The position numbers and the translations under genes are program-made. DNA of 33,926 bases, from the IMG/VR virus record IMGVR_UViG_3300043449_000258, positions 1-33,926 of that record. One strand, 5' to 3'. A model generated the notes under the pieces. It made no database searches. It was not told the origin of the DNA and saw only the letters and a program-made list of their open reading frames with translations. The first letter of the stretch is position 1; the number at the start of each line of letters is the position of its first letter. Source of the stretch: a virus. Taxonomy: Duplodnaviria > Caudoviricetes. Shown in pieces: positions 11,903 to 24,326 of the stretch.

Positions 11903-13165
11903 TTATACGCCACTTAAAATATCCATTGGCTTCCAGACGTAATCCTCGTTCTCTTCTTCAAAATAGCTTGTCACCGCCAACTGGTCAATGTAGCTCAACG
12001 CATCCGGCAAATCGTCGTGAACCCCTTGCGCCGGGAACATCAGAAGCTGGTCGGTAAAGTCAGACCAGTCTTTCTTGCTGTTAAGAATAATCCTGCCGTG
12101 TTCAAACCGGCCTTGCAATGACCAGATTATTCTATCAGCTTTCTTTCTGTTGCCATGCGTCAGGTCAATGATGTGGCTATATACATTATTCTTTCTCATC
12201 AAGTCTGACAAGTAGGGCAGAACTGCATTCTTCAAAGCTCCGCGTTCAATTCCAACGCTGATAGGTCGATAGTCACGCATCTTCATCAGTATCTTGGAAG
12301 ATGTCTCGCGTATATCCCAACGCCCATGCTCGATCTCTTCTACGAACCACTGGCCATCATCCGTGACCTTTACCACTGCGATAGCAGACTCGTCCAATCT
12401 CTTTTTTACATTCGCAGCTTGCTTGGCAACTTCCTCAAATCCAGCCAAGTCAACTGCAACGAAGTGGCTTCCAATCGGCGGTGCCTCGCCATACTTAATC
12501 CACTCTTCTTTGAAGATGTCAGACCCGGCATTGCTGAAACTTGCCATGTATTCTTGCCGGAAAGAAAAACTGGAAAGCGTTTTTTTCGCAGACTCGATCT
12601 CAAGTGCGTCTATCAGAGGGTTATCGGCAGTTGTAAAGTGCCAAGACTTCCAGTCGTTGTCATCTTCAGACTGCCCCAAGTTCCACAGGTCAAAAAACCA
12701 GTTCCGGCCTTTAGGTGTGCCGATGAACATGGCTGCGCCTTTCTTGTCCGACAGACTGGCTCTTATGACCTGCTCCCAAGCCGCGGGCTTGATGTCTGCC
12801 ACTTCGTCTAGCACAGCATACGTCAGGCTAACCCCGCGTAGGGTATCTGGTCTGTCAGCACCGCGCACATAAATCCTCGCCCCGTTAATCATCGTGATGT
12901 CTAGGTTGTTCACATGTGCAGACTGGATCACCTCCCGCCCCAAGTCTAGCAGCAAGTCCCAGATGATCTGCCGAGACTGTCCCATAGTCGGACTGACATA
13001 CAGCACCGCACTTCCAGCAGGGCAACGCAGCGCCTCGATCAGCAGGATGGTTGCCGCCAGCCGAGACTTACCGCATCGTCTGCCAGCAGCGATGACCTTG
13101 AACCTTGTTTTGTCTGTATAGACCGTCTGCTGCCAGGGGAGAAGCTGGAAGTTCAGGTCAGACAT
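11903..13165 (-). CDS. terL: Terminase large subunit
   Basis: Walker A AAGRRCGKS, Walker B AVLDE, coupling motif IGTPKG, nuclease acidic residues VAVDLA and HDDLPDAL. Confidence 0.95.
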   Translation of the reverse strand: MSDLNFQLLPWQQTVYTDKTRFKVIAAGRRCGKSRLAATILLIEALRCPAGSAVLYVSPTMGQSRQIIWDLLLDLGREVIQSAHVNNLDITMINGARIYVRGADRPDTLRGVSLTYAVLDEVADIKPAAWEQVIRASLSDKKGAAMFIGTPKGRNWFFDLWNLGQSEDDNDWKSWHFTTADNPLIDALEIESAKKTLSSFSFRQEYMASFSNAGSDIFKEEWIKYGEAPPIGSHFVAVDLAGFEEVAKQAANVKKRLDESAIAVVKVTDDGQWFVEEIEHGRWDIRETSSKILMKMRDYRPISVGIERGALKNAVLPYLSDLMRKNNVYSHIIDLTHGNRKKADRIIWSLQGRFEHGRIILNSKKDWSDFTDQLLMFPAQGVHDDLPDALSYIDQLAVTSYFEEENEDYVWKPMDILSGV

Positions 13166-14376
13166 CAGTATGTCGAGCCAAAAGGGTCTTTATACATAAG
13201 CGATGGCGCAGGAACGGTCTGCTTCATCATGTTCCCAACATTTTGATTGTTGCGCTCCAATATATTAAGCATACTTTCGCTGCCGGGGAATACGACGAAG
13301 TTGCTTGTGCCTTTGCCGCCAACGCGGGAGCCTTCATCTAGGTAGCGGATGCCGGGAATGCCTGCATCACGCATGAACTCGCTAACCTTTGCTTGACTAC
13401 CTCCGAATTGAGACAGCATACCTTCGTAAAGTTGCCTGCCAGTTACCTCGCTGCCTCTAGCATTGGCTTTTGCAATCAGCCTTGCATAATCATCAACACC
13501 TTTGCCTGCTCCCTTGTATTCCTTCACAACGTCAGCCACCGGACGATACCAACTCTGCTGACTCAACGGCTTATCCCAGTCCAAAAACTTTGCTATCTGC
13601 GCGTCGGGGAGGTCTACTTTGTAGAGGGAGCCAGAAGGTGCGTTTTTAATTTTTGCGCCCTTTAATGCTTCAATTTGCTTTGCAAGTGCTGCCGAATGTG
13701 CGCGACCTTCTGGTGTTAAGAATTGTTCAGTAGCCCCGCGCCGCGCCATTGCCAAAGCAGTGTCGTATCCATTTGCAGAAATTGATGATGCAGCAGAAAA
13801 GTTTGGGTCTATAGGAAAAACTTTTTTACCGTTGAGTAAAGTGTCCGTGGTTTGCAAGGCATCTCGATACCCCTGCGCCACCCCCGGATTCTCCGCAAAA
13901 TACAACCCATGCCCGTAAGCCTGCGCTCCCTCACCAGTCCCGATCTTGCTGGCATCAAACTTGTCAAACTTGTGCGGAGAACCGTGATACACATCCAACT
14001 GCGATACCGGCCCAACCTGCTTGCCACCACGCATCGCACCTATCATCTTGCCAAACGGTACAAGCGACAATCCAGCCAGCGCCATACCCAACGGATCATC
14101 GTCACGGCGCGCTCGCTCGATGTCCCGCACCGCCATCGCCTGCCCAACGCCAGGCACAAAGCCTAAAGCCATCTCTGCCGCCATCGTGCCATAGCCCTGG
14201 TCAGGCTGCTGGTCAAAAGAAACGAATTGAGTCCCAAACTCCGACACCGGCCCAGGCACCTGACGCGCAGGTAGGTTCATCCGCCGCCCCTGCCGCATCA
14301 AGTTAGGGTTTCCGAAAGCAGGCTGCATCGCCCGTTGATACTCTAGCGCGGCCAGAAGTCGATCTTCATTAGTCAT
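13165..14376 (-). CDS. Putative ADP-ribosyltransferase-fold (ART-PolyVal-like) protein with pre-toxin TG-like helical motif
   Basis: GFVPGVGQAMAVRD...LGMALAGLSLVPFGK, then VYHGSPHKFDKFD...GTGEGAQAYGHGLYFAE and GIPGIRYLD...NFVVF. Confidence 0.6.
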   Translation of the reverse strand: MTNEDRLLAALEYQRAMQPAFGNPNLMRQGRRMNLPARQVPGPVSEFGTQFVSFDQQPDQGYGTMAAEMALGFVPGVGQAMAVRDIERARRDDDPLGMALAGLSLVPFGKMIGAMRGGKQVGPVSQLDVYHGSPHKFDKFDASKIGTGEGAQAYGHGLYFAENPGVAQGYRDALQTTDTLLNGKKVFPIDPNFSAASSISANGYDTALAMARRGATEQFLTPEGRAHSAALAKQIEALKGAKIKNAPSGSLYKVDLPDAQIAKFLDWDKPLSQQSWYRPVADVVKEYKGAGKGVDDYARLIAKANARGSEVTGRQLYEGMLSQFGGSQAKVSEFMRDAGIPGIRYLDEGSRVGGKGTSNFVVFPGSESMLNILERNNQNVGNMMKQTVPAPSLMYKDPFGSTY

Positions 14377-14387
14377 TTGTTCCTCGC

Positions 14388-14969
14388 TCAGACATCGGTT
14401 ATGTTATCCGCGTCAATAGTAGCTGGTTCAACCACAGCGCCTAACCCAGTGATGTTGATAGTCACCGCACTTCTATGTTGCCTGTCCTTCTCAAACAGGC
14501 TTACAGGCAGTGTTCTGTCCATACACAGCTTAATCATCGCAGCCTGTGCCGGGTGAGCGTCGTTCATGGCGATCTCGATGGCCTTGTTCACCACCAGCTC
14601 GCCAGCGCCATCCAGCAACAGCTTCTTCAGTTCGTTGATCTTCTGGTGGTCTGTCTTTGCCAACATCGTTGGCGGGCGACCAATCATCTTTGTGCCTAGC
14701 GGTCTGCCGACGTTTCGCTTGATCTTGGTCTGGTTCTCAGTCCACAGCTTTAAAGATGTACTGTCGCCATCCAATGCCTTGTTGTAAATTGCTTTGGCAA
14801 TCTGCCCGTTGGCTTTAGCCTGCCCGATCTCTATCTCGCGGCTGTAATGCTCGAACAGCGTTTTCTCATCAACATTGATAAGGGCTGCAATCTCGTTGTA
14901 CGGTAATCCTATCCCACTGGTGGACTCCACCAAGCGGCGATGGTCGGGGTTCGGAGTGTAGTCAATCAT
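14388..14969 (-). CDS. terS: Terminase small subunit (apparently two TerS-like modules)
   Basis: HTH-like GLPYNEIAALINVDEKTL...ALDGDSTSLKLW, then GRP...AIEIAMND...AMIKLCMDRTLP...VTINITG; upstream of terL. Confidence 0.65.
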   Translation of the reverse strand: MIDYTPNPDHRRLVESTSGIGLPYNEIAALINVDEKTLFEHYSREIEIGQAKANGQIAKAIYNKALDGDSTSLKLWTENQTKIKRNVGRPLGTKMIGRPPTMLAKTDHQKINELKKLLLDGAGELVVNKAIEIAMNDAHPAQAAMIKLCMDRTLPVSLFEKDRQHRSAVTINITGLGAVVEPATIDADNITDV

Positions 14970-16167
14970 TCTTGAAAGGCTCGCCAGTTGATTCCAGCGT
15001 TGCTGTCTGTCCTGTGAATTCCTGCCAGCGTTGGACGATTACATCGCAGTATTTTGGGTCGAGTTCCATGCTGCGGTTGATACGGTTTGTTTTCTCACAG
15101 GCGATCAGGGTGGAGCCGCTGCCGCCGAATAGGTCAACAACTATGCGTTTGTCGGCCATCGAGTAGTAATCAAAGAACCAGCACACCAATTCAACAGGCT
15201 TTTGCGTAGGATGAACGCGCTTTTTTGTGTCATCTTTTTGCATTCCATGATGCCCAGACCACAAGATTCTTGCCACCATTCGCTTGTGTTTTGCCCTTGA
15301 CCAGCAAAGTTCAAACGTGTTTCCCACGACCTTATCCATGTTCTCACCACATCGCTTGTCCCACACCACCCATGAACCGGCATTTCGGTTAGGTATCAGG
15401 TCAACGTAATAATCAGCCCCCCAAAGAAAAATTTCCTTGCAATAGTCAAACATGGAAAAAATCGTGTTTATAAACTCAGGGTTGAAGTCTTCATGGTCGC
15501 CCTTAACCGCGTCGAATCGCTTGCCAGTTTTTCGATGCTTGGCATCGCTGCTAAACATGCTGTCGTAGTCTGTATTTAAAAACATCCCATAAGGCGGGTC
15601 AGTAAACACCATGTCAGCCTTCTGCCCATCCATCAGCTTCTCAACCGCATCAATGCTGGTCGAGTCGCCGCAAAGCAGCCGGTGTTTACCCAGCAGCCAA
15701 ACGTCCCCCAGGACGGTCACAGGGGCTTCAGGCACATCCGGCACAGCGTCATCGTCTGTCAGGCCAACCTCTACCGGCTTCAAGGCTGCTATCTCATCCA
15801 ACGTGAACCCGGTCAGTTCCAGATCAAACCCTAACTCTTCCAGCTCGCCCAGCTCCAGCCGCAACATCTCATCGTCCCACCCGGCATCCAGCGCCAGCCG
15901 ATTGTCGGCAATGACGTATGCCCGTCTCTGAGTCTCTGTTAGCTCACTCAACTCGATGGTAGGAACCTCGGTGTGGCCTAACTTCCGCGCTGCCAGTAGC
16001 CTTCCATGCCCGGCAATCACCACCCCTTCAGCGTCAACCAGGATAGGGTTTGTCCAGCCAAACTCTTTGATACTCGCTGCAATCTGCGCTACCTGCCCAT
16101 CTGAATGCGTCCTGCTGTTCCTAGCGTACGGAATCAGGTCAGTTACGTTGCGGTGAGTGATCTGCAT
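14962..16167 (-). CDS. ParB/Srx N-terminal domain + beta-class N6A/N4C DNA methyltransferase, 401 aa
   Basis: ParB domain LIPYARNSRTHS...EFGWTNPILVD...IAGHGRLLAA...IADNRL; MTase motif IV FTDPPYG, HPTQKP, motif I DLFGGSGST. Start placed at ATG 16167. Confidence 0.9.
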   Translation of the reverse strand: MQITHRNVTDLIPYARNSRTHSDGQVAQIAASIKEFGWTNPILVDAEGVVIAGHGRLLAARKLGHTEVPTIELSELTETQRRAYVIADNRLALDAGWDDEMLRLELGELEELGFDLELTGFTLDEIAALKPVEVGLTDDDAVPDVPEAPVTVLGDVWLLGKHRLLCGDSTSIDAVEKLMDGQKADMVFTDPPYGMFLNTDYDSMFSSDAKHRKTGKRFDAVKGDHEDFNPEFINTIFSMFDYCKEIFLWGADYYVDLIPNRNAGSWVVWDKRCGENMDKVVGNTFELCWSRAKHKRMVARILWSGHHGMQKDDTKKRVHPTQKPVELVCWFFDYYSMADKRIVVDLFGGSGSTLIACEKTNRINRSMELDPKYCDVIVQRWQEFTGQTATLESTGEPFKND

Positions 16168-16172
16168 GGCTG

Positions 16173-16181
16173 AATGTAGCA
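16173..16181 (-). promoter_or_regulatory. Candidate extended -10 element (TGcTACATT) 5 nt before the MTase ATG
   Basis: TG-N-TACATT, then CAGCC-ATG; no clear SD. Confidence 0.3.
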
Positions 16182-16273
16182 TATTTCCATTTTTACTTTT
16201 TTTGTGGGGGAGAGGGTACAGCAATATTTCTGCCGAGCGCCGACCCCTCCCCCCCCTACTTTGCATCCTGTGG

Positions 16274-16301
16274 ACTTTACATAATGCACATTATACGAAG
16301 T
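16274..16301 (-). other. XerC/XerD dif-like recombination site (11-6-11)
   Basis: Minus strand ACTTCGTATAA-TGTGCA-TTATGTAAAGT versus E. coli dif GGTGCGCATAA-TGTATA-TTATGTTAAAT; the XerD arm matches 9/11; lies in non-coding DNA. Confidence 0.75.
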
Positions 16302-16322
16302 TGCACTGCACCAACCTATAAT

Positions 16323-16335
16323 AATCAATGACTTA
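16323..16335 (+). promoter_or_regulatory. IHF binding site
   Basis: AATCAATGACTTA is an exact match to WATCAANNNNTTR, 21 bp from the dif-like site. Confidence 0.6.
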
Positions 16336-16428
16336 CAGCGCACCGATTGCAGATCACCGACTGCGTTTCGTGCATAATCGCATGTTGCACTGCATTCTGC
16401 TGCAAAAATCCACCATGCGAGCCAGCGG

Positions 16429-16467
16429 ATGTGACAAAAATTGTCACAATGTGACAAAAATTGTCAC
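16429..16467. repeat. Tandem 20-bp repeat of the palindrome TGTGACAA-AAA-TTGTCAC(A)
   Basis: ATGTGACAAAAATTGTCACA followed by ATGTGACAAAAATTGTCAC; four alternating GTGACAA half-sites. Confidence 0.9.
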
Positions 16468-16547
16468 TTTCTGACCAAAAAAAAGACATTTGAAGAGCGA
16501 TTGGATGCTAACTCACCTACTTAACTCCCATATTTAATAACATACCT

Positions 16548-16805
16548 CTAGAACCCTCCAGAACGCTCACCATCGCGTTCATCTGACTCCACCGTAGTCA
16601 TGCCTACCTGTATGCTCTCCAGCCCCATGTATGGCCTATAACCGAGGTTGTGGGCATGGCTATAAAGGTTCAGCACTACCAGGAACCCTGCCGAGATGTC
16701 GCCTTCACCGGCAGCCAGCAGAATCTGCCTCTCTGCATCTTTAAGAGTTCGCTGAAAGTACTTTGTGTTGAGTAGTGCTGGCCTGCCAACTCCGTCAATC
16801 GCCAT
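16548..16805 (-). CDS. Hypothetical protein
   Basis: 85 aa, TAATG-coupled; last gene before the non-coding control region. Confidence 0.65.
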   Translation of the reverse strand: MAIDGVGRPALLNTKYFQRTLKDAERQILLAAGEGDISAGFLVVLNLYSHAHNLGYRPYMGLESIQVGMTTVESDERDGERSGGF

Positions 16806-17113
16806 TACGACAAATCCACAATTCTCTGAACATACCGGCCACGCGCATTCTTTCTCCAGCCATGCACTTCAATCCTCACTCCAGCTTCCCTGACCCTGCC
16901 GACTGTTTCAGATGCCGCTACCTTGGCAACTCTATTTGCCACCCCTTCACTTGTCACCTGCACAGCAAGCACCTCGTCTCTCCGGATCGCCAACAAGTCT
17001 GCCCATCCCCAAAGGTCTTTACGGGTTCTTGTGAAGCTGTTCCACTTTTCCACGACTTCCACCAGGTAACCCAATTCCCTGAGAGCTTTCAAACTTCTTT
17101 GTGTCGGCGTCAT
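16805..17113 (-). CDS. PD-(D/E)xK-fold nuclease (resolvase/VRR-NUC-like)
   Basis: LRELGYLVEVVE...DLWGWADLLAI...VLAVQVT pattern; AAGGGAG SD. Confidence 0.65.
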   Translation of the reverse strand: MTPTQRSLKALRELGYLVEVVEKWNSFTRTRKDLWGWADLLAIRRDEVLAVQVTSEGVANRVAKVAASETVGRVREAGVRIEVHGWRKNARGRYVQRIVDLS

Positions 17114-17237
17114 TGGAAAACTCCCTTTCTATTTTTCCTGCGAGTTTCTTTTCTTTCTGCGTTTTGTTTCGCAATGCACGTTTAATCCCCAATTCTATTA
17201 CGTGGTCTGCGTAACTTCCTCTGAATCCTGCGGGCAT
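17019..17237 (-). CDS. Possible small basic protein overlapping both neighbours
   Basis: ATG 17237 has an AAGGA SD and fills an 84-nt gap, but the ORF overlaps the next gene by 95 nt. Confidence 0.35.
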   Translation of the reverse strand: MPAGFRGSYADHVIELGIKRALRNKTQKEKKLAGKIEREFSNDADTKKFESSQGIGLPGGSRGKVEQLHKNP

Positions 17238-17509
17238 ATTAAATCCTTGGTTTTTAACAATAATTCCCATTCTGTTCCATATCGCGCTTCAAATTCTCGT
17301 CGGAACGGGTGCCTGGACACCGCAATAGCATTTCGGATACCCGACTCATGGTGAGTTGGGCAAAGACCAATTGTATTTAAATGCCCTGACCTTTTCCCAT
17401 TTACAAGAATGTGATGCACATGACACGGCACAAATCCATGCTCATCGAGACAGACAATGCAGCCAAGATCAGCGACCGCGGCCATCCACTTTTTTTCTTC
17501 TTTCGTCAA
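17198..17509 (-). CDS. Ref-like / DUF968-type HNH recombination nuclease
   Basis: VADLGCIVC...HVHHI...TIGLCPTHH...FEARYGTE motif. Confidence 0.7.
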   Translation of the reverse strand: MTKEEKKWMAAVADLGCIVCLDEHGFVPCHVHHILVNGKRSGHLNTIGLCPTHHESGIRNAIAVSRHPFRREFEARYGTEWELLLKTKDLICPQDSEEVTQTT

Positions 17510-17832
17510 AATTCCTCCGGTGCCGGTACTTTAATTCCCGCATGATGACTTTCCGCATTCAGCCAGTCCAACCATTCTCCGAACTTTGTTTTTCCATACC
17601 GGCTGGTTCTTCGGCCGAGCATTACCATTCCACCATGTAATCCCGGCGTAATTCTAGGGTTTACATCGTTTTCAAAGGCCGCCGTGAGAATATCCTTCCA
17701 TTCCTCCGCTGAAATATCGCTGAGGATGCCGTTAATGGGCCACTGGCGCTGTTCTGACCACGCCTTGAGGATTGGCCATTGCGCGGCGTTTGCAGACGCG
17801 CTACGGCGTTCCTCGCAGGTTTGGCAGATCAT
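17506..17832 (-). CDS. ninB: NinB-family recombination protein (short N-terminus)
   Basis: RSASANAAQW...SAEEWKDILTAA...PGLHGGMVMLGRRTSR motif. Confidence 0.7.
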   Translation of the reverse strand: MICQTCEERRSASANAAQWPILKAWSEQRQWPINGILSDISAEEWKDILTAAFENDVNPRITPGLHGGMVMLGRRTSRYGKTKFGEWLDWLNAESHHAGIKVPAPEEF

Positions 17833-18449
17833 GGTGTCATTGCCTTTTCAACCGGCCAGCCAGAAACGATGCGGTTACGCAATTTTGACTTTTCTATTCC
17901 AGTCTCAATCGCCCATTCGGTTATCGTTTTAATCGCTCCGCGCCATTCAACGAGATGGTTGTTTCTTTTGTTCCTGGCCTGTTGCGTAAAAGACTCCCAT
18001 TGGCAGTTATCCGGCCCATAACCAAAATTGTTGTCTTTTCGTCCTAAAGTCATTCGTTCCGGCTTTATTCCCATGTCTGCGCGAAACTTAGCGAACGAGT
18101 ATTTCCATGTCGCGCATACAATAATACCTCGGCCACCATAGTGCGCGTAATCGCGCCTTTTTTGGTTGTAGCAACGCCACAGCATGGATTGCCAAGAAAT
18201 GTACGTGCGATATTCCGGTGAATTGTTTTTGACGCTACAGCCGTGAGTTGTCCGCGCCTCCCTCAACAGCCCAATTTTCTTGCAGCCGCAGGACTTGGTG
18301 GGCCGTTTTGCCCCATGAAGCTGCGAATGCTGAACGTACTTTTGCGTTCCACACTCGCAAAGCACAACCCACATTCCGCGACCGTTAACCATTTCCTTCC
18401 GAATAACTTGCAAAAAGCCAAAAGTCATGCCGGGTTCAATTGCAGACAT
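17829..18449 (-). CDS. HNH-type homing endonuclease
   Basis: GMTFGFLQVI...CECG...TKSCGC...WQSMLWRC...YGGRGIIVC...DNNFGYGPDNCQW...QQARNKRNN. Confidence 0.8.
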   Translation of the reverse strand: MSAIEPGMTFGFLQVIRKEMVNGRGMWVVLCECGTQKYVQHSQLHGAKRPTKSCGCKKIGLLREARTTHGCSVKNNSPEYRTYISWQSMLWRCYNQKRRDYAHYGGRGIIVCATWKYSFAKFRADMGIKPERMTLGRKDNNFGYGPDNCQWESFTQQARNKRNNHLVEWRGAIKTITEWAIETGIEKSKLRNRIVSGWPVEKAMTP

Positions 18450-18799
18450 TATTTTGCCTCCATCGTTTTTCCAGCAAAGCCTTTAAAAGCGGTTTTAACA
18501 AAGTGTCTCATCCGCTTGATGTGTTGCTCAGAAGTCTCGCCGTGGCTGCGATCCATTCCCCACCCGGCAAGGTTTGACAATGCTTGGTCAGTAAAATGCG
18601 CATCGTAATGTTGCTGGCACAGGTTTGCAAATCCTGTTGTTTTCAAAATCTTGTAAAGCGCCGAAGTCTTGCAACCTTTACCCGAACATAAAACATGAGC
18701 GTCGGCATGGTATTGCTCTGACGTATCTGCTCGTTTCTTCCAGCCGCAGCCGCAATACCGACCGTTATTGATCTCAGACCGACATTTAGGACACTGCAT
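18449..18799 (-). CDS. Zinc-finger hypothetical protein, 116 aa
   Basis: CPKC...CGC and CSGKGC...CQQH; start placed at ATG 18799 (GGGAG SD). Confidence 0.6.
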   Translation of the reverse strand: MQCPKCRSEINNGRYCGCGWKKRADTSEQYHADAHVLCSGKGCKTSALYKILKTTGFANLCQQHYDAHFTDQALSNLAGWGMDRSHGETSEQHIKRMRHFVKTAFKGFAGKTMEAK

Positions 18800-19514
18800 T
18801 GATTTCTCCCAGGTATTGTTCAAATTTCGTTGAATTAAATAAGGTTGCTGGCCGCAGGTATTCAGACATCACCGGGTCTTTGCCCCATTGTTCGCACTTG
18901 TTGAAGATCACCTCGCGGCATTGCAAGTCAGTAGCACCGGACTTCAGCCGCGCTGCGATGAGCTTAAGATTGCTATCAACTGGTCTGTAATTGCGCTGCG
19001 TGTTCGCATTCAGGTATTCAAGAATTTCGATTGCTTGTGATTTAAATTGATCCGATGCGTCGGGCTTGCCCGACAATGTAGTTGATGTTTTATTTAGGTT
19101 TATAGGTTCTTTGGTTGTTAGGTTAATAGGTTCTTTGGTTAGCATACCGTCCGCATCATCATCGCAATGCGGTGGCAATGCGTTCGCATCTGGTAAGTCT
19201 TTGATTTTATTCCATCTTGTTTTTGCGCTATCAGTTGCCTTGCTAGACTTGTCTTTGTACCTAGAAATTTCAAAGTCGCACCGTTTGTGAAAATACTTGC
19301 CCTTGCGTTCATGAAAAAAGTCAGCAAGAACACGTTTGTATGCTTGCTCCTCTTCCGCACTGCGAACGCATACCAATCGCATCGCAGACGCATCTAGCGG
19401 CTTTTCAGTGATGTAATAAAGGTCGATCAGTTGTCGGTAGATTCCGTGTTCCAGCAGGGTTAGATGCCCTGTGTCGCGGCGGTAATCGCCTATGTGATGC
19501 TGAAAATAAAACAC
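18786..19514 (-). CDS. Replication initiator (DUF1376/YdaU N-domain + Phg_2220_C-like C-domain)
   Basis: YFQHHIGDYRRDTGHLTLLEHGIYRQLIDLYY; C-terminal ILEYLN...YLRPATLF...KFEQYL; GTG start with AAGGAG SD. Confidence 0.8.
   Translation of the reverse strand: MFYFQHHIGDYRRDTGHLTLLEHGIYRQLIDLYYITEKPLDASAMRLVCVRSAEEEQAYKRVLADFFHERKGKYFHKRCDFEISRYKDKSSKATDSAKTRWNKIKDLPDANALPPHCDDDADGMLTKEPINLTTKEPINLNKTSTTLSGKPDASDQFKSQAIEILEYLNANTQRNYRPVDSNLKLIAARLKSGATDLQCREVIFNKCEQWGKDPVMSEYLRPATLFNSTKFEQYLGEINAVS
19094..19140. repeat. Iteron-like tandem repeat inside the initiator gene (candidate origin)
   Basis: TTAGGTTWATAGGTTCTTTGGTT x2 with period 24; GGTT six times at 8-nt spacing. Confidence 0.6.
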
Positions 19515-22011: not shown

Positions 22012-22094
22012 GCATCTCTGAAGTTTGTTTTTATATTTGCGTCGTCGGCGCAATCGTGTGTTTTTCAATCTTAATTTGGGGCAACAATGAATAA
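22008..22094 (+). CDS. 28-aa single-TM membrane peptide
   Basis: MSISEVCFYICVVGAIVCFSILIWGNNE; ATGA-coupled and overlaps the erf start. Confidence 0.5.
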   Translation: MSISEVCFYICVVGAIVCFSILIWGNNE

Positions 22095-22668
22095 ATCAGA
22101 AAGTATTGCAGGACTGGCGGCAGCACTGGCGGCGGCGCAAGGCGTGATGAAAGGCGCACTTAAAGACTCTGCAAACCCGTTTTTCAAGAGTCGGTATGCT
22201 GACCTTTCCAGCGTCGTGGAAGCCATCCGCGCAGCGTTTAGCGCAAACGGCCTGTCCTACATCCAGACCTTAGAGCCAAGCGACAAAGACGAAGTGCGCG
22301 TCGAAACGACCTTGCTGCACTCATCCGGTGAGTGGATTTCCTGCGGTATCCTGTCTCTGCCGGTGAGCAAAGTCGATGCCCAAGGTTACGGCTCGGCACT
22401 TACCTATGCTCGCCGTTACAGCCTGTCTGCCGCCGTTGGAGTGGCACCAGAGGACGACGATGGCAACGCAGCCAGCCTTGCAAAGCCGAAGCCGACGATG
22501 GATTGCACAGACCACATCAGCGCATTCCACGCCGCGGCAACGCTTGATGACCTGCAAACAGCCTTCAAAACGGCCTACAAAGAGGCTCAGACGCTGCAAG
22601 ACTCGATGGCAATGGCAACGCTCACAAACGCTAAAAACAAGCGCAAAACCGAACTGGCGGTGGCATGA
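22087..22668 (+). CDS. erf: ERF-family single-strand annealing protein
   Basis: KDSANPFFKSRYADL...ETTLLHSSGEW...QGYGSALTYARRYSLSAAVGVAPEDDDG signature. Confidence 0.92.
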   Translation: MNKSESIAGLAAALAAAQGVMKGALKDSANPFFKSRYADLSSVVEAIRAAFSANGLSYIQTLEPSDKDEVRVETTLLHSSGEWISCGILSLPVSKVDAQGYGSALTYARRYSLSAAVGVAPEDDDGNAASLAKPKPTMDCTDHISAFHAAATLDDLQTAFKTAYKEAQTLQDSMAMATLTNAKNKRKTELAVA

Positions 22669-23279
22669 AAATCATTGATGCGGTTCAGGGAACGCCGGAA
22701 TGGCTCGCAGCCCGCGCCGGACGGGTTACGGCCAGCATGATTTCTGCTGTGCTGATGAAGCCGGAAACGGCTGGATTTCGGGACTACCAGGCACAGCTCG
22801 TCGCAGAAATCCTGACCGGCAAGCCTCAAGGGTCGGATTACACAAACGCGGCGATGCAGTTTGGCACCGAGACAGAGCCGCTTGCACGAAGCGCCTACGA
22901 AGCCGAGACAGGGTTTAGTGTTGATGAGGTGGGGTTATGTATCCACGAGACCATTGACCGCGCTGGCGCCAGTCCTGACGGTCTTGTAGGCAATTCGGGA
23001 TTGGTAGAGATCAAGTGTCCGAAGGTTGCAACGCACCTTGCTTATCAGATTGCCGGAGTAGTCCCGTCAGGATACAAGAACCAGATGATGTGGCAGATGG
23101 CTTGCACCGGCAGGGACTGGTGCGATTTCGTCAGCTTTAGACCTGACTTGCCGGAACATTTACAATTGTTCGTTGTTCGTTTTAAACGCGATCCAGCGCG
23201 TATTCTTGAACTGGAAACTGCGGTTGTCGCCTTTTTGGACACCGTGGACAAAATGTTATCTCAACTCAAAAAGGTATAA
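22665..23279 (+). CDS. YqaJ / lambda-exonuclease family recombination exonuclease
   Basis: QGTPEWLAARAGRVTAS, GASPDGLVG, VEIKCP, QMMWQM, WCDFVSF motifs. Confidence 0.92.
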   Translation: MKIIDAVQGTPEWLAARAGRVTASMISAVLMKPETAGFRDYQAQLVAEILTGKPQGSDYTNAAMQFGTETEPLARSAYEAETGFSVDEVGLCIHETIDRAGASPDGLVGNSGLVEIKCPKVATHLAYQIAGVVPSGYKNQMMWQMACTGRDWCDFVSFRPDLPEHLQLFVVRFKRDPARILELETAVVAFLDTVDKMLSQLKKV

Positions 23280-23595: not shown

Positions 23596-23745
23596 ATGAA
23601 AGTTAATACAGAGTTCGTCAATCCTCCGATATACAGTCGTGATTTCGACTGGAGCGCCACGCACGACGGTTACGACGATGGCGATCCTATGGGTTGGGGT
23701 CGCACCGAGGAAGAATCAATATCGGATTTGGAAGCGCAGCAATGA
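23596..23745 (+). CDS. Small acidic hypothetical protein, 49 aa
   Basis: Read manually: MKVNTEFVNPPIYSRDFDWSATHDGYDDGDPMGWGRTEEESISDLEAQQ; AGGAG SD. Confidence 0.7.
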   Translation: MKVNTEFVNPPIYSRDFDWSATHDGYDDGDPMGWGRTEEESISDLEAQQ

Positions 23746-24326
23746 AAGAGTTTAGGTTAAAAGTTAGCGTCCGCAATAATCTGCTTTTGTCGGCAATCGA
23801 AGCACAAGGTTACGTTTCGGTTGCCGAATTCGAGCGGGCTTGCGGCTTGAGCTTGGGCAGGATTAACAACCTGGTGGCAATGCGAGAAGCGCCAATCTCA
23901 ACGTCCGGTGAATTCTCAAAGAATGCAAAACTGGTCATGGAGGTGCTAGGCGCGGCGCCTACAGACCTTTGGACAGAGCAGCAACTTACTATCAAGCTGA
24001 AAACCAATAGCGGTGAGCGAGACATTGATGCCGACATTGTGCAGCACCTGTTGGAGCAAAAGAGCAGAACCGATTACCTGCCATCGCCTGAAGATTCGCT
24101 ACTGGCGGCAGAGACATCGGCAATCGTACAGCAGGTTTTAGGGACTATCAGTCCACGCGAGAAAGACATTTTGCAGGAACGATTTGAAAAGGATTTAACC
24201 CTTGAAGAAGTTGGGAATCATCACGGAGTATCAAGAGAAAGAATCCGAAGTATCGAGGCAAAAGCATTGCGAAAATTACGCGACCCGACACGTTCGACAA
24301 TTTTGAAGGAGTTGTTTAATGAATAA
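23742..24326 (+). CDS. XRE-like HTH + sigma70 region 4 fusion protein, 194 aa
   Basis: Start at ATG 23742 (ATGA overlap). N-terminal [19 protein letters not shown]...[10 protein letters not shown]; C-terminal [13 protein letters not shown]...[31 protein letters not shown]. Confidence 0.8.
   Translation: [194 protein letters not shown]

Follow-up and report, generated by a model that had tools for sequence, protein, structure and literature searches.

A dif-type Xer site beside the terminase genes of a tailed phage without recombinase genes

Why should a tailed phage that encodes no site-specific recombinase carry, close to its terminase genes, a sequence laid out like the sites on which bacterial XerC and XerD act? 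The question is raised by IMG/VR virus record IMGVR_UViG_3300043449_000258 (Duplodnaviria; Caudoviricetes), a stretch of 33,926 nucleotides analysed here at full length and called the window. A first-pass annotation, made from the letters alone, had described a non-coding 11-6-11 dyad at 16274..16301. It had proposed that the phage borrows host XerCD, either to integrate at chromosomal dif or to resolve circular dimers, and had regarded such a lifestyle as unusual.

The Xer core and the genome that carries it

On the minus strand the 28-bp dif-type core reads ACTTCGTATAA-TGTGCA-TTATGTAAAGT. Two 11-base arms enclose a 6-base spacer, and the inner bases follow ATAA-N6-TTAT, given as the inner motif of Xer cores in the consulted part of PMC11705084. 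The core is located in the gap between a ParB-methylase gene (start 16167) and an 85-aa ORF (16548-16805). Two short program-called ORFs overlap the 28-mer, with no support as genes. The XerD arm is conserved, the XerC arm is more variable and the position is non-coding, in line with the description of dif and xrs sites in the portion of PMC2731167 consulted. A degenerate dif pattern (at most 3 mismatches), composed with the site already known and hence a measure of rarity only, matched the window once and 0 of 100 shuffles. The dyad is thus confirmed by the sequence. The identical 28-mer is also found in L001, L083, L467 and L468; in L001, a close relative, the 28-mer is kept and the methylase gene is absent. 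Judged by its sequence, the 28-mer is a real Xer core of plasmid style, in a tailed phage that lacks an integrase and keeps the core in its packaging region. The elements of the region and of the genome are as follows.

11903..13165, minus strand: large terminase gene (terL), by protein-family match
13165-14376: ORF with an ART-PolyVal (ADP-ribosyltransferase) domain, between terS and terL; other inserts replace it in relatives
14388..14969, minus strand: probable small terminase gene (terS), from a weak phrog_309 match (E 1.5e-4) and its position before terL
14962..16167, minus strand: ParB-like domain and DNA methylase, an optional insert between the Xer core and terS
16196..16256, minus strand: G-run element, conserved throughout the clade on the upstream side of terS, whether or not a dif is present; holds one KOPS-type octamer
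16274..16301, minus strand: Xer core, with XerD-type arm 16274-16284, 6-base spacer 16285-16290 and XerC-type arm 16291-16301
16323..16335, plus strand: IHF-consensus site WATCAANNNNTTR, 22 bases beyond the XerC arm, a predicted accessory site
16429..16468, no strand assigned: two tandem copies of a 20-base dyad, kept in L001, a candidate distal accessory site
16548..16805, minus strand: orf85, a conserved small ORF with no family found, marking the far side of the gap in the clade
16805..17113, minus strand: ORF possibly akin to Hjc-type Holliday junction resolvases, a weak lead (feature scores 0.90-0.91)
18786..19514, minus strand: replication initiator gene, with internal repeats at 19094-19140
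22087..23279, plus strand: ERF-like annealing protein and exonuclease, an alternative way to join redundant ends

The ends of the window overlap by 2 bases and then read through as one open 519-codon gene, and CheckV gives 96%. Because its ends close into one open gene, the genome is complete, as it had appeared to be at first pass. It encodes capsid, portal, terminases, tail, lysis, replication initiator, ERF, exonuclease and a Cro-like protein, a content that suggests the label of podovirus. The initiator gene may contain a lambda-O-like origin. The ORF at 23694-24326 has a sigma-70 region 4 domain and is a candidate transcription regulator. The Hjc lead of ORF 16805..17113 comes from PF01870, present in 39-60% of the members behind the features; PHROG and Pfam searches with this ORF gave no match. 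In the phage collection, no cultured close relative was found (best terL identity below 60%, capsid about 33%) and orf85 had no match.

The previously noted absence of an integrase, resolvase or Cre-like gene was borne out. No recombinase was found among the 58 window ORFs scanned in PHROGs, a six-frame search of the window for tyrosine recombinases (PF00589) returned 0 matches at E<=1, and serine resolvases (PF00239) also gave 0 matches in the window. A likeness to loxP was ruled out by the lack of a Cre-like gene and by the 6-base spacer. One contig of sequencing run X1 equals window 15625-18671 with zero differences; it is not independent, as the run may be the source of the window. Depth in this run is 17-18 over 15025-18671 and 8.5-12.8 on the flanks. 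Contig depth is not copy number and strains are mixed in the run, and a possible repeated end was therefore not counted as evidence. Among the joints listed for this run, none falls at the site. The sequence makes up small shares of the other runs, which say nothing about habitat.

The arms carry a host signal. Compared with eight published beta-proteobacterial dif sites (from the consulted parts of the tables in PMC2731167 and PMC3025954), the window arms show 2-3 differences in 22 positions from five, which upholds the likeness to dif, and 5-9 from three. The nearest five are those of Methylobacillus, Thiobacillus, Bordetella, Nitrosomonas and Polynucleobacter. The XerD arm is 0-2 mismatches away from eight host dif sites. 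The arms ending in ...ACAA or ...ACGA of relatives are near the dif sites of Rhodoferax, Acidovorax, Polaromonas and Variovorax. The window host is probably one of the Betaproteobacteria; arms like those of the window also occur in Lactobacillus. The exact spacer of the window is the published spacer of Variovorax chromosome I dif, which counts against our reading. Arms also track the host group in cultured phages: EdH4 has both E. coli dif arms exactly, with a different spacer, and the arms of RpT1 and Maja resemble published Ralstonia and Burkholderia dif. Xer arms offer a host-prediction signal for uncultured phages. Octamers of the type that we take to be KOPS show no bias towards the site, and the nearest one in the window points away from it.

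The gap upstream of terS in related phages

Conservation was followed in the best 80 of 596 terL-matched loci, drawn from about half of the collection. In these relatives the XerD-type arm occurs 20 times in the 154 kb lying within 3.5 kb upstream of terL, against 2 times in 610 kb elsewhere; two of the 20, more than 3 kb away, are probably there by chance. Among the 46 relatives with at least 1.5 kb of upstream DNA, 17 have a full site in the gap between orf85 and terS (13 recognised by pattern and 4 diverged ones by profile, several loci being near-duplicates), 4 have a lone XerD arm and the others have no site. Within the clade the site is always between orf85 and terS, in most relatives in the orientation opposite to that of the window. 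Conservation of the site in relatives is thus partial: 17 of 46 keep a full site in the same gap and 29 do not, so that Xer joining would be dispensable in the clade. The 28-mer is also intact in two metagenome contigs whose identity to the window is 83% and 89%, and phage sequence continues on both sides of it.

In the relatives examined, the gap ends with the G-run element, a candidate packaging-start or late-promoter signal. Contig ends fall within 250 bases upstream of it in 14 of 91 cases, against 3 downstream; they are scattered, and contig-end mapping gave no sharp terminus in the clade.

The sequence upstream of the G-run behaves as a slot for varied motifs, which we name parS, DnaA, Fur-like and SlmA on the basis of assumed consensus sequences. 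In 81 non-redundant loci out of 120, selected by the G-run and compared over 280 bases on each side, the upstream part holds XerD arms in 27, DnaA boxes in 15, parS in 11, Fur-like boxes in 28 and IHF motifs in 9, and an unnamed GGGTAAACCC-type repeat is present in 38 of 81. By a strict rule 11 of the XerD arms belong to full sites, and more look full with other XerC arms. At least one motif is found upstream in 70 of 81 loci, against none in the downstream 280 bases of 79 and 0-1.5 in shuffles, the motifs having been defined after viewing overlapping loci and the downstream control being partly coding. parS and the XerD arm never co-occur in the 81 loci (p=0.013, kin not corrected). SlmA-like 12-mers, with 2 mismatches allowed, are found upstream in 13 of 109 loci and downstream in 0.

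Several of these arrangements deserve mention in their own right. XerD arms are lone or tandem in L338, L395, L359, L380 and L440; in L359, L380 and L440 a tandem pair is separated by 2 bases and the XerC arm is missing. Two other phage records (G042:C1:38489-38617 and G022:C1:5706-5758) have two or three XerD-type arms in a span of 130 bases. The parS-type 16-mer (L330, L341, L353, L378, L382, L391 and others; 11/81) is always accompanied by GGGTAAACCC-type repeats. L017, L022, L044 and L064 have arrays of SlmA-like 12-mers upstream of the G-run, which could affect host division.

Unrelated phages, spacers and flanking motifs

The 28-mer of L083 is identical to that of the window, yet its terL is just 24% alike over 194 residues. 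At least 120 loci match the degenerate pattern, and their number in IMG/VR is estimated at about 500; when the spacer was left free in a second pattern, at least 120 loci matched and the estimate was about 270. Of 21 annotated loci chosen for having no match to the window terL, 18 have a terminase gene close to the site. Four cultured phages carry the site within their terminal repeats, of 208 bases in RpT1, 236 in RpY2, 459 in EdH4 and 519 in Hena1 (the annotated 519-base direct terminal repeat), so that terminal redundancy duplicates it. It adjoins terL in EKP1, PSTCR3 and phiITL-1, is upstream of terS in Bacillus phage Mgbh1 and is accompanied by DnaA boxes in Burkholderia phage Maja. For Mgbh1, the consulted part of PMC5135824 reports predicted headful packaging, clear plaques and a putative integrase elsewhere in the genome. 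In EG103P3 the site is about 590 bases from the record end, and the ends overlap by 55 bases only. Terminase adjacency was not seen in the stretch viewed, or could not be placed, for Enterococcus phage 9181, Vibrio phage K303 and Pseudomonas phage M1; K303 has ParA near the site. A blast search with an rV5-like region gave at least 120 records covering at least 80% of the query, several K-12 isolates among them. In one rV5-like phage, Fur-like boxes adjoin a dif-like site in a non-coding region (L457:1400-1600).

The feature is thus common in tailed phages, cultured ones included, and the view of it as an unusual lifestyle has to be abandoned. The dif users described in the consulted parts of the literature are filamentous, DJR and micro-phages and islands (PMC5357621, PMC7062461, PMC12715192, 10.1101/633727). 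We found no paper on dif-like sites at the terminase genes or terminal repeats of tailed phages; subscription journals were thinly covered, and a prior mention may exist. Among site-bearing records, mostly picked for having the site, a tyrosine integrase is encoded in 1 of 50 (a provirus with a chromosomal spacer) and in 1 of 15 of an overlapping set, and a serine resolvase in 0 of 29. The window arms also occur at L084:4709-4736, near one end of a low-GC provirus record and adjacent to a gene resembling those of tyrosine recombinases; this site is probably a chromosomal dif unrelated to the window clade.

Spacers separate these sites from chromosomal ones. Among 77 loci with long flanks, including four added from earlier sets, the spacer TGTATA is found in 0 of 29 terminase-adjacent sites against 23 of 48 others. 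Non-chromosomal spacers end in CA in 31 of 58 cases and start with TGT in 1 of 58, counts from a pattern that forced CA being excluded.

The 13-mer located 22 bases beyond the XerC arm is common to the window and the unrelated phage L083, and fits what we take to be the IHF consensus. With at most 1 mismatch allowed, 60 non-chromosomal sites with unrelated flanks include 11 that have an IHF-type motif at this offset (+/-1), against a background of 0.2 per offset; leaving out the two discovery loci gives 9 of 58. Other offsets show smaller peaks, among them one of 6 at -20 for the opposite strand. In 35 chromosomal-type sites, this offset is not among the top ones. A joint pattern of core and IHF motif, allowing 20-24 bases between them, retrieved 16 loci, four pairs of them near-duplicates; terL is no more than 3.5 kb away in 9, and the spacing is 21-22 in 15. 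As in cer and psi, a flanking motif is therefore in fixed phase with the core, here IHF-type at 21-22 bases and of predicted accessory role. One of the 16 comes from A. baumannii: its circular plasmid pTS37365 encodes ParA as well as head, portal and terL proteins, has no tyrosine integrase and carries the layout about 10 kb from its terL. Two small Acinetobacter plasmids share the spacing and have an XerC arm equal to that of the window. At these plasmid sites (L486:1190-1262 and L487:1190-1262), which have a spacer ending in CCA, the motif 21-22 bases off the XerC arm is possibly an unreported accessory site. The 37-kb 'plasmid' L485 (CP042209.1), nearly all of it annotated as hypothetical, is a phage-plasmid of podovirus type; ParA, an antirepressor and an O-acetyltransferase are among its products.

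A different flanking arrangement is found on the XerD side of the ...ACAA class, with 9-mers that are presumably DnaA boxes at +24, +65, +80 and +104. A perfect box is within 300 bases in 63 of 75 loci of this class. In 18 loci less than 80% alike, selected for two DnaA boxes, the box spacing is fixed and the intervening bases diverge. The array (L086-L205, +24 to +104 from the site centre) is tied to the XerD arm, inverts as a unit and occurs in two phage clades with different terminases. No DnaA box was found near the window site. The tandem dyad at 16429-16468 gave a weak blast match (E 3) about 290 bases from a dif-like site of the rV5-like phage ECP32.

Possible roles and comparison with known systems

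The location of the site, its choice of spacer and the phasing of its flanking motif suggest that identical phage copies recombine with each other, as far as comparison of sequences can tell. Our leading reading, held tentatively and with somewhat less than even confidence, is that host XerCD joins two copies of the site on terminally repeated DNA into a circle. What the sequences show directly is the layout and position of the site, its conservation, arms of host type, a flanking motif in phase and the absence of a phage recombinase; the following steps are inferred. Packaging would start near the G-run and place the site within a terminal repeat or within the redundancy of the first headful, giving two direct copies per virion. 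With two direct copies supplied by terminal repeats, joining of ends would be the simplest use. Host XerC and XerD would bind both copies, and IHF would bend the DNA and aid synapsis. The unusual spacer would permit exchange between identical phage copies and disfavour exchange with host dif; it may also let cleavage proceed without FtsK. Acinetobacter sites with a T/CCGCCA spacer recombine independently of FtsK, and unlike spacers fail to recombine, according to the consulted part of PMC11705084. The product would be a monomer circle replicating from the initiator gene, or a head-to-tail junction when two genomes pair. The Hjc-like neighbour, a weak lead, could resolve a junction made by XerC; such genes are common at that place.

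Several observations count against the joining of ends. Contig ends, though enriched upstream of the G-run, are scattered and mark no sharp terminus, the full site is lacking in the 29 relatives mentioned above, and the ERF protein and exonuclease could do the same job. In the 81 G-run loci this place is frequently taken by other host-type motifs, or by XerD arms that are alone or in tandem and incapable of recombining. The KOPS-type octamers, unbiased towards the site, likewise give no hint of activation through FtsK. Xer recombination under accessory control requires supercoiled DNA (10.64898/2026.02.23.706985, in the part consulted); freshly ejected linear DNA is not supercoiled, and this requirement therefore speaks against joining. 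Finally, the layout of pTS37365, about 10 kb from terL, fits multimer resolution equally well.

That last use, in which circular dimers made by ERF/exonuclease or RecA would be turned into monomers in a cer/psi-like manner, during circular replication or in a plasmid-like carrier state, appears unlikely to us. The IHF-phased layout of the phage-plasmid and of the two small plasmids is in its favour, as are the flanking motif on the XerC side and the replacement of dif by parS in relatives, both presumably plasmid-stability functions. However, neither ParA nor a CI-type repressor was found in the window, only the Cro-like gene, and resolution does not require a place beside terS or inside terminal repeats. 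Moreover, concatemers are the packaging substrate, and resolving them would be of no obvious help to lytic growth. A somewhat stronger rival, though still on the unlikely side, is that the slot is a docking pad, where XerC/XerD, or XerD alone, bind but do not recombine the DNA productively, the site being one of several kinds for host proteins that can replace each other beside the packaging start. Bound proteins would shield or anchor the DNA end, aid ejection, form a roadblock or soak up host chromosome-cycle proteins; XerD is known to unload SMC. The interchangeable motifs upstream of the G-run, the lone and tandem XerD arms and the SlmA-like 12-mers all agree with docking, and the T5 injection-stop region holds DnaA boxes (10.64898/2026.01.13.699316, in the part consulted). 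The motif survey has the limits given with its counts, and two arms, a 6-base spacing, a bias at the spacer end and strict phasing exceed the needs of mere occupancy; the central place in short terminal repeats also fits recombination.

Integration at chromosomal dif as a VGJ-type IMEX, with XerC swapping one strand pair through three shared spacer bases, is improbable. It would account for the lack of an integrase, and the window spacer shares three XerC-side bases with the common TGTATA; such matching is the pattern described for VGJ in the consulted part of PMC5357621. Variovorax chromosome I dif, moreover, carries the exact spacer of the window, and gokushovirus prophages excise from dif, which makes them rare in genomes (PMC7062461, part consulted). 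Against this, no integrated copy of the clade was found in 185,579 species genomes, in a search with a single protein that reaches close relatives only; its 5 matches are all short MAG contigs of 1.6-10 kb without annotation. The two metagenome contigs with the window flank stay phage on both sides, and spacers starting with TGT make up 1 of 58 non-chromosomal ones. Integration would also separate terS from its upstream region, and the sole provirus among the 50 records has its own integrase and a chromosomal spacer. An 'IMEX podovirus' is thus unlikely. Of the earlier proposal, the borrowing of host XerCD is well supported by layout, conservation and host-type arms; no prophage of close relatives turned up, and the contigs examined showed no junction with bacterial dif, leaving its use for integration unsupported. 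The link to the packaging region and to terminal repeats and the phased IHF-type site had escaped that proposal. Finally, the 28-mer contains TATAAT and lies upstream of late genes, as would be expected if it were a late-operon promoter or operator, or a site for a phage protein, that only resembles dif. We consider such a non-Xer origin highly improbable: most relatives carry the opposite orientation, and the arms follow host dif types in unrelated phages. The promoter reading in particular was rejected, no sigma-70-like promoter being called at the site.

If host XerCD does join the ends, the idea might extend further, although this is doubtful. Many tailed phages, lytic ones included, would then join their ends through host XerCD under a new accessory control, exerted by IHF bending the DNA 21-22 bases away from the XerC arm or by DnaA boxes phased beyond the XerD arm. 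The slot at the start of packaging would be a general dock for proteins of the host chromosome cycle, with a content that can be swapped: in related phages, parS, Fur-like or SlmA-like sites take the place of dif. End joining in lytic tailed phages without a recombinase is usually credited to homologous recombination or annealing, and the XerCD route would be a new host dependency. A Xer site gated by IHF or DnaA would extend the known controls (FtsK, PepA/ArgR/ArcA, XafT) and may explain the FtsK-independent Acinetobacter plasmid sites. In any case, a dif-like site in a phage should not be taken as a sign of lysogeny.

Compared with chromosomal dif of Betaproteobacteria, the window arms are within 2-3 mismatches of several published sites, whereas the spacer differs in most comparisons and the site is not at a replication terminus. 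IMEXs (CTX, VGJ, TLC, GGI, gokushoviruses and dif-type DJR phages) resemble the window in having no integrase and one non-coding dif-like site. In contrast, no integrated copy was found for the window clade, the spacers of relatives are unlike host dif, and the carrier is a tailed dsDNA phage. CTX uses two inverted sites that fold into attP on single-stranded DNA, whereas the window has one site; TLC and GGI have a degenerate XerD arm and a host-like spacer, whereas the window XerD arm is intact. The spacer of the window, set against TGTATA hosts, follows the VGJ pattern; among the non-chromosomal spacers, 1 of 58 does.

Phage P1 has loxP, the site of Cre, near pac and uses it for circularisation and dimer resolution. 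The proposed joining would parallel this arrangement with a host recombinase in place of Cre: a tyrosine-recombinase site is placed where terminal redundancy duplicates it, which in the window is presumed. Unlike P1, the window encodes no recombinase, its spacer has 6 bases and its XerC and XerD arms are asymmetric. The T5 injection-stop region is alike in holding host-protein sites (DnaA boxes) in terminal non-coding DNA; a recombination core is not described in the part of that source consulted, and the window has no DnaA box near its site.

Among plasmid Xer sites, Acinetobacter xrs/pdif, ColE1 cer and pSC101 psi share with the window an 11-6-11 core, host-type arms, a non-chromosomal spacer and a fixed motif on the XerC side. 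In contrast to these plasmid sites, that of the window is on a tailed phage beside terS. IHF was not found as a Xer accessory protein in the parts of the literature on Xer sites that we consulted. The consulted part of PMC11705084 reports no accessory sequence near the FtsK-independent sites and does not mention IHF. In place of the PepA/ArgR/ArcA system of cer and psi (PMC5357621 and 10.64898/2026.02.23.706985, both consulted in part), the flanking motif here is IHF-type or, in relatives, a set of DnaA boxes on the XerD side. What appears new is therefore the predicted IHF site 22 bases beyond the XerC arm, a spacing that recurs in unrelated phages, in a phage-plasmid and in plasmids.
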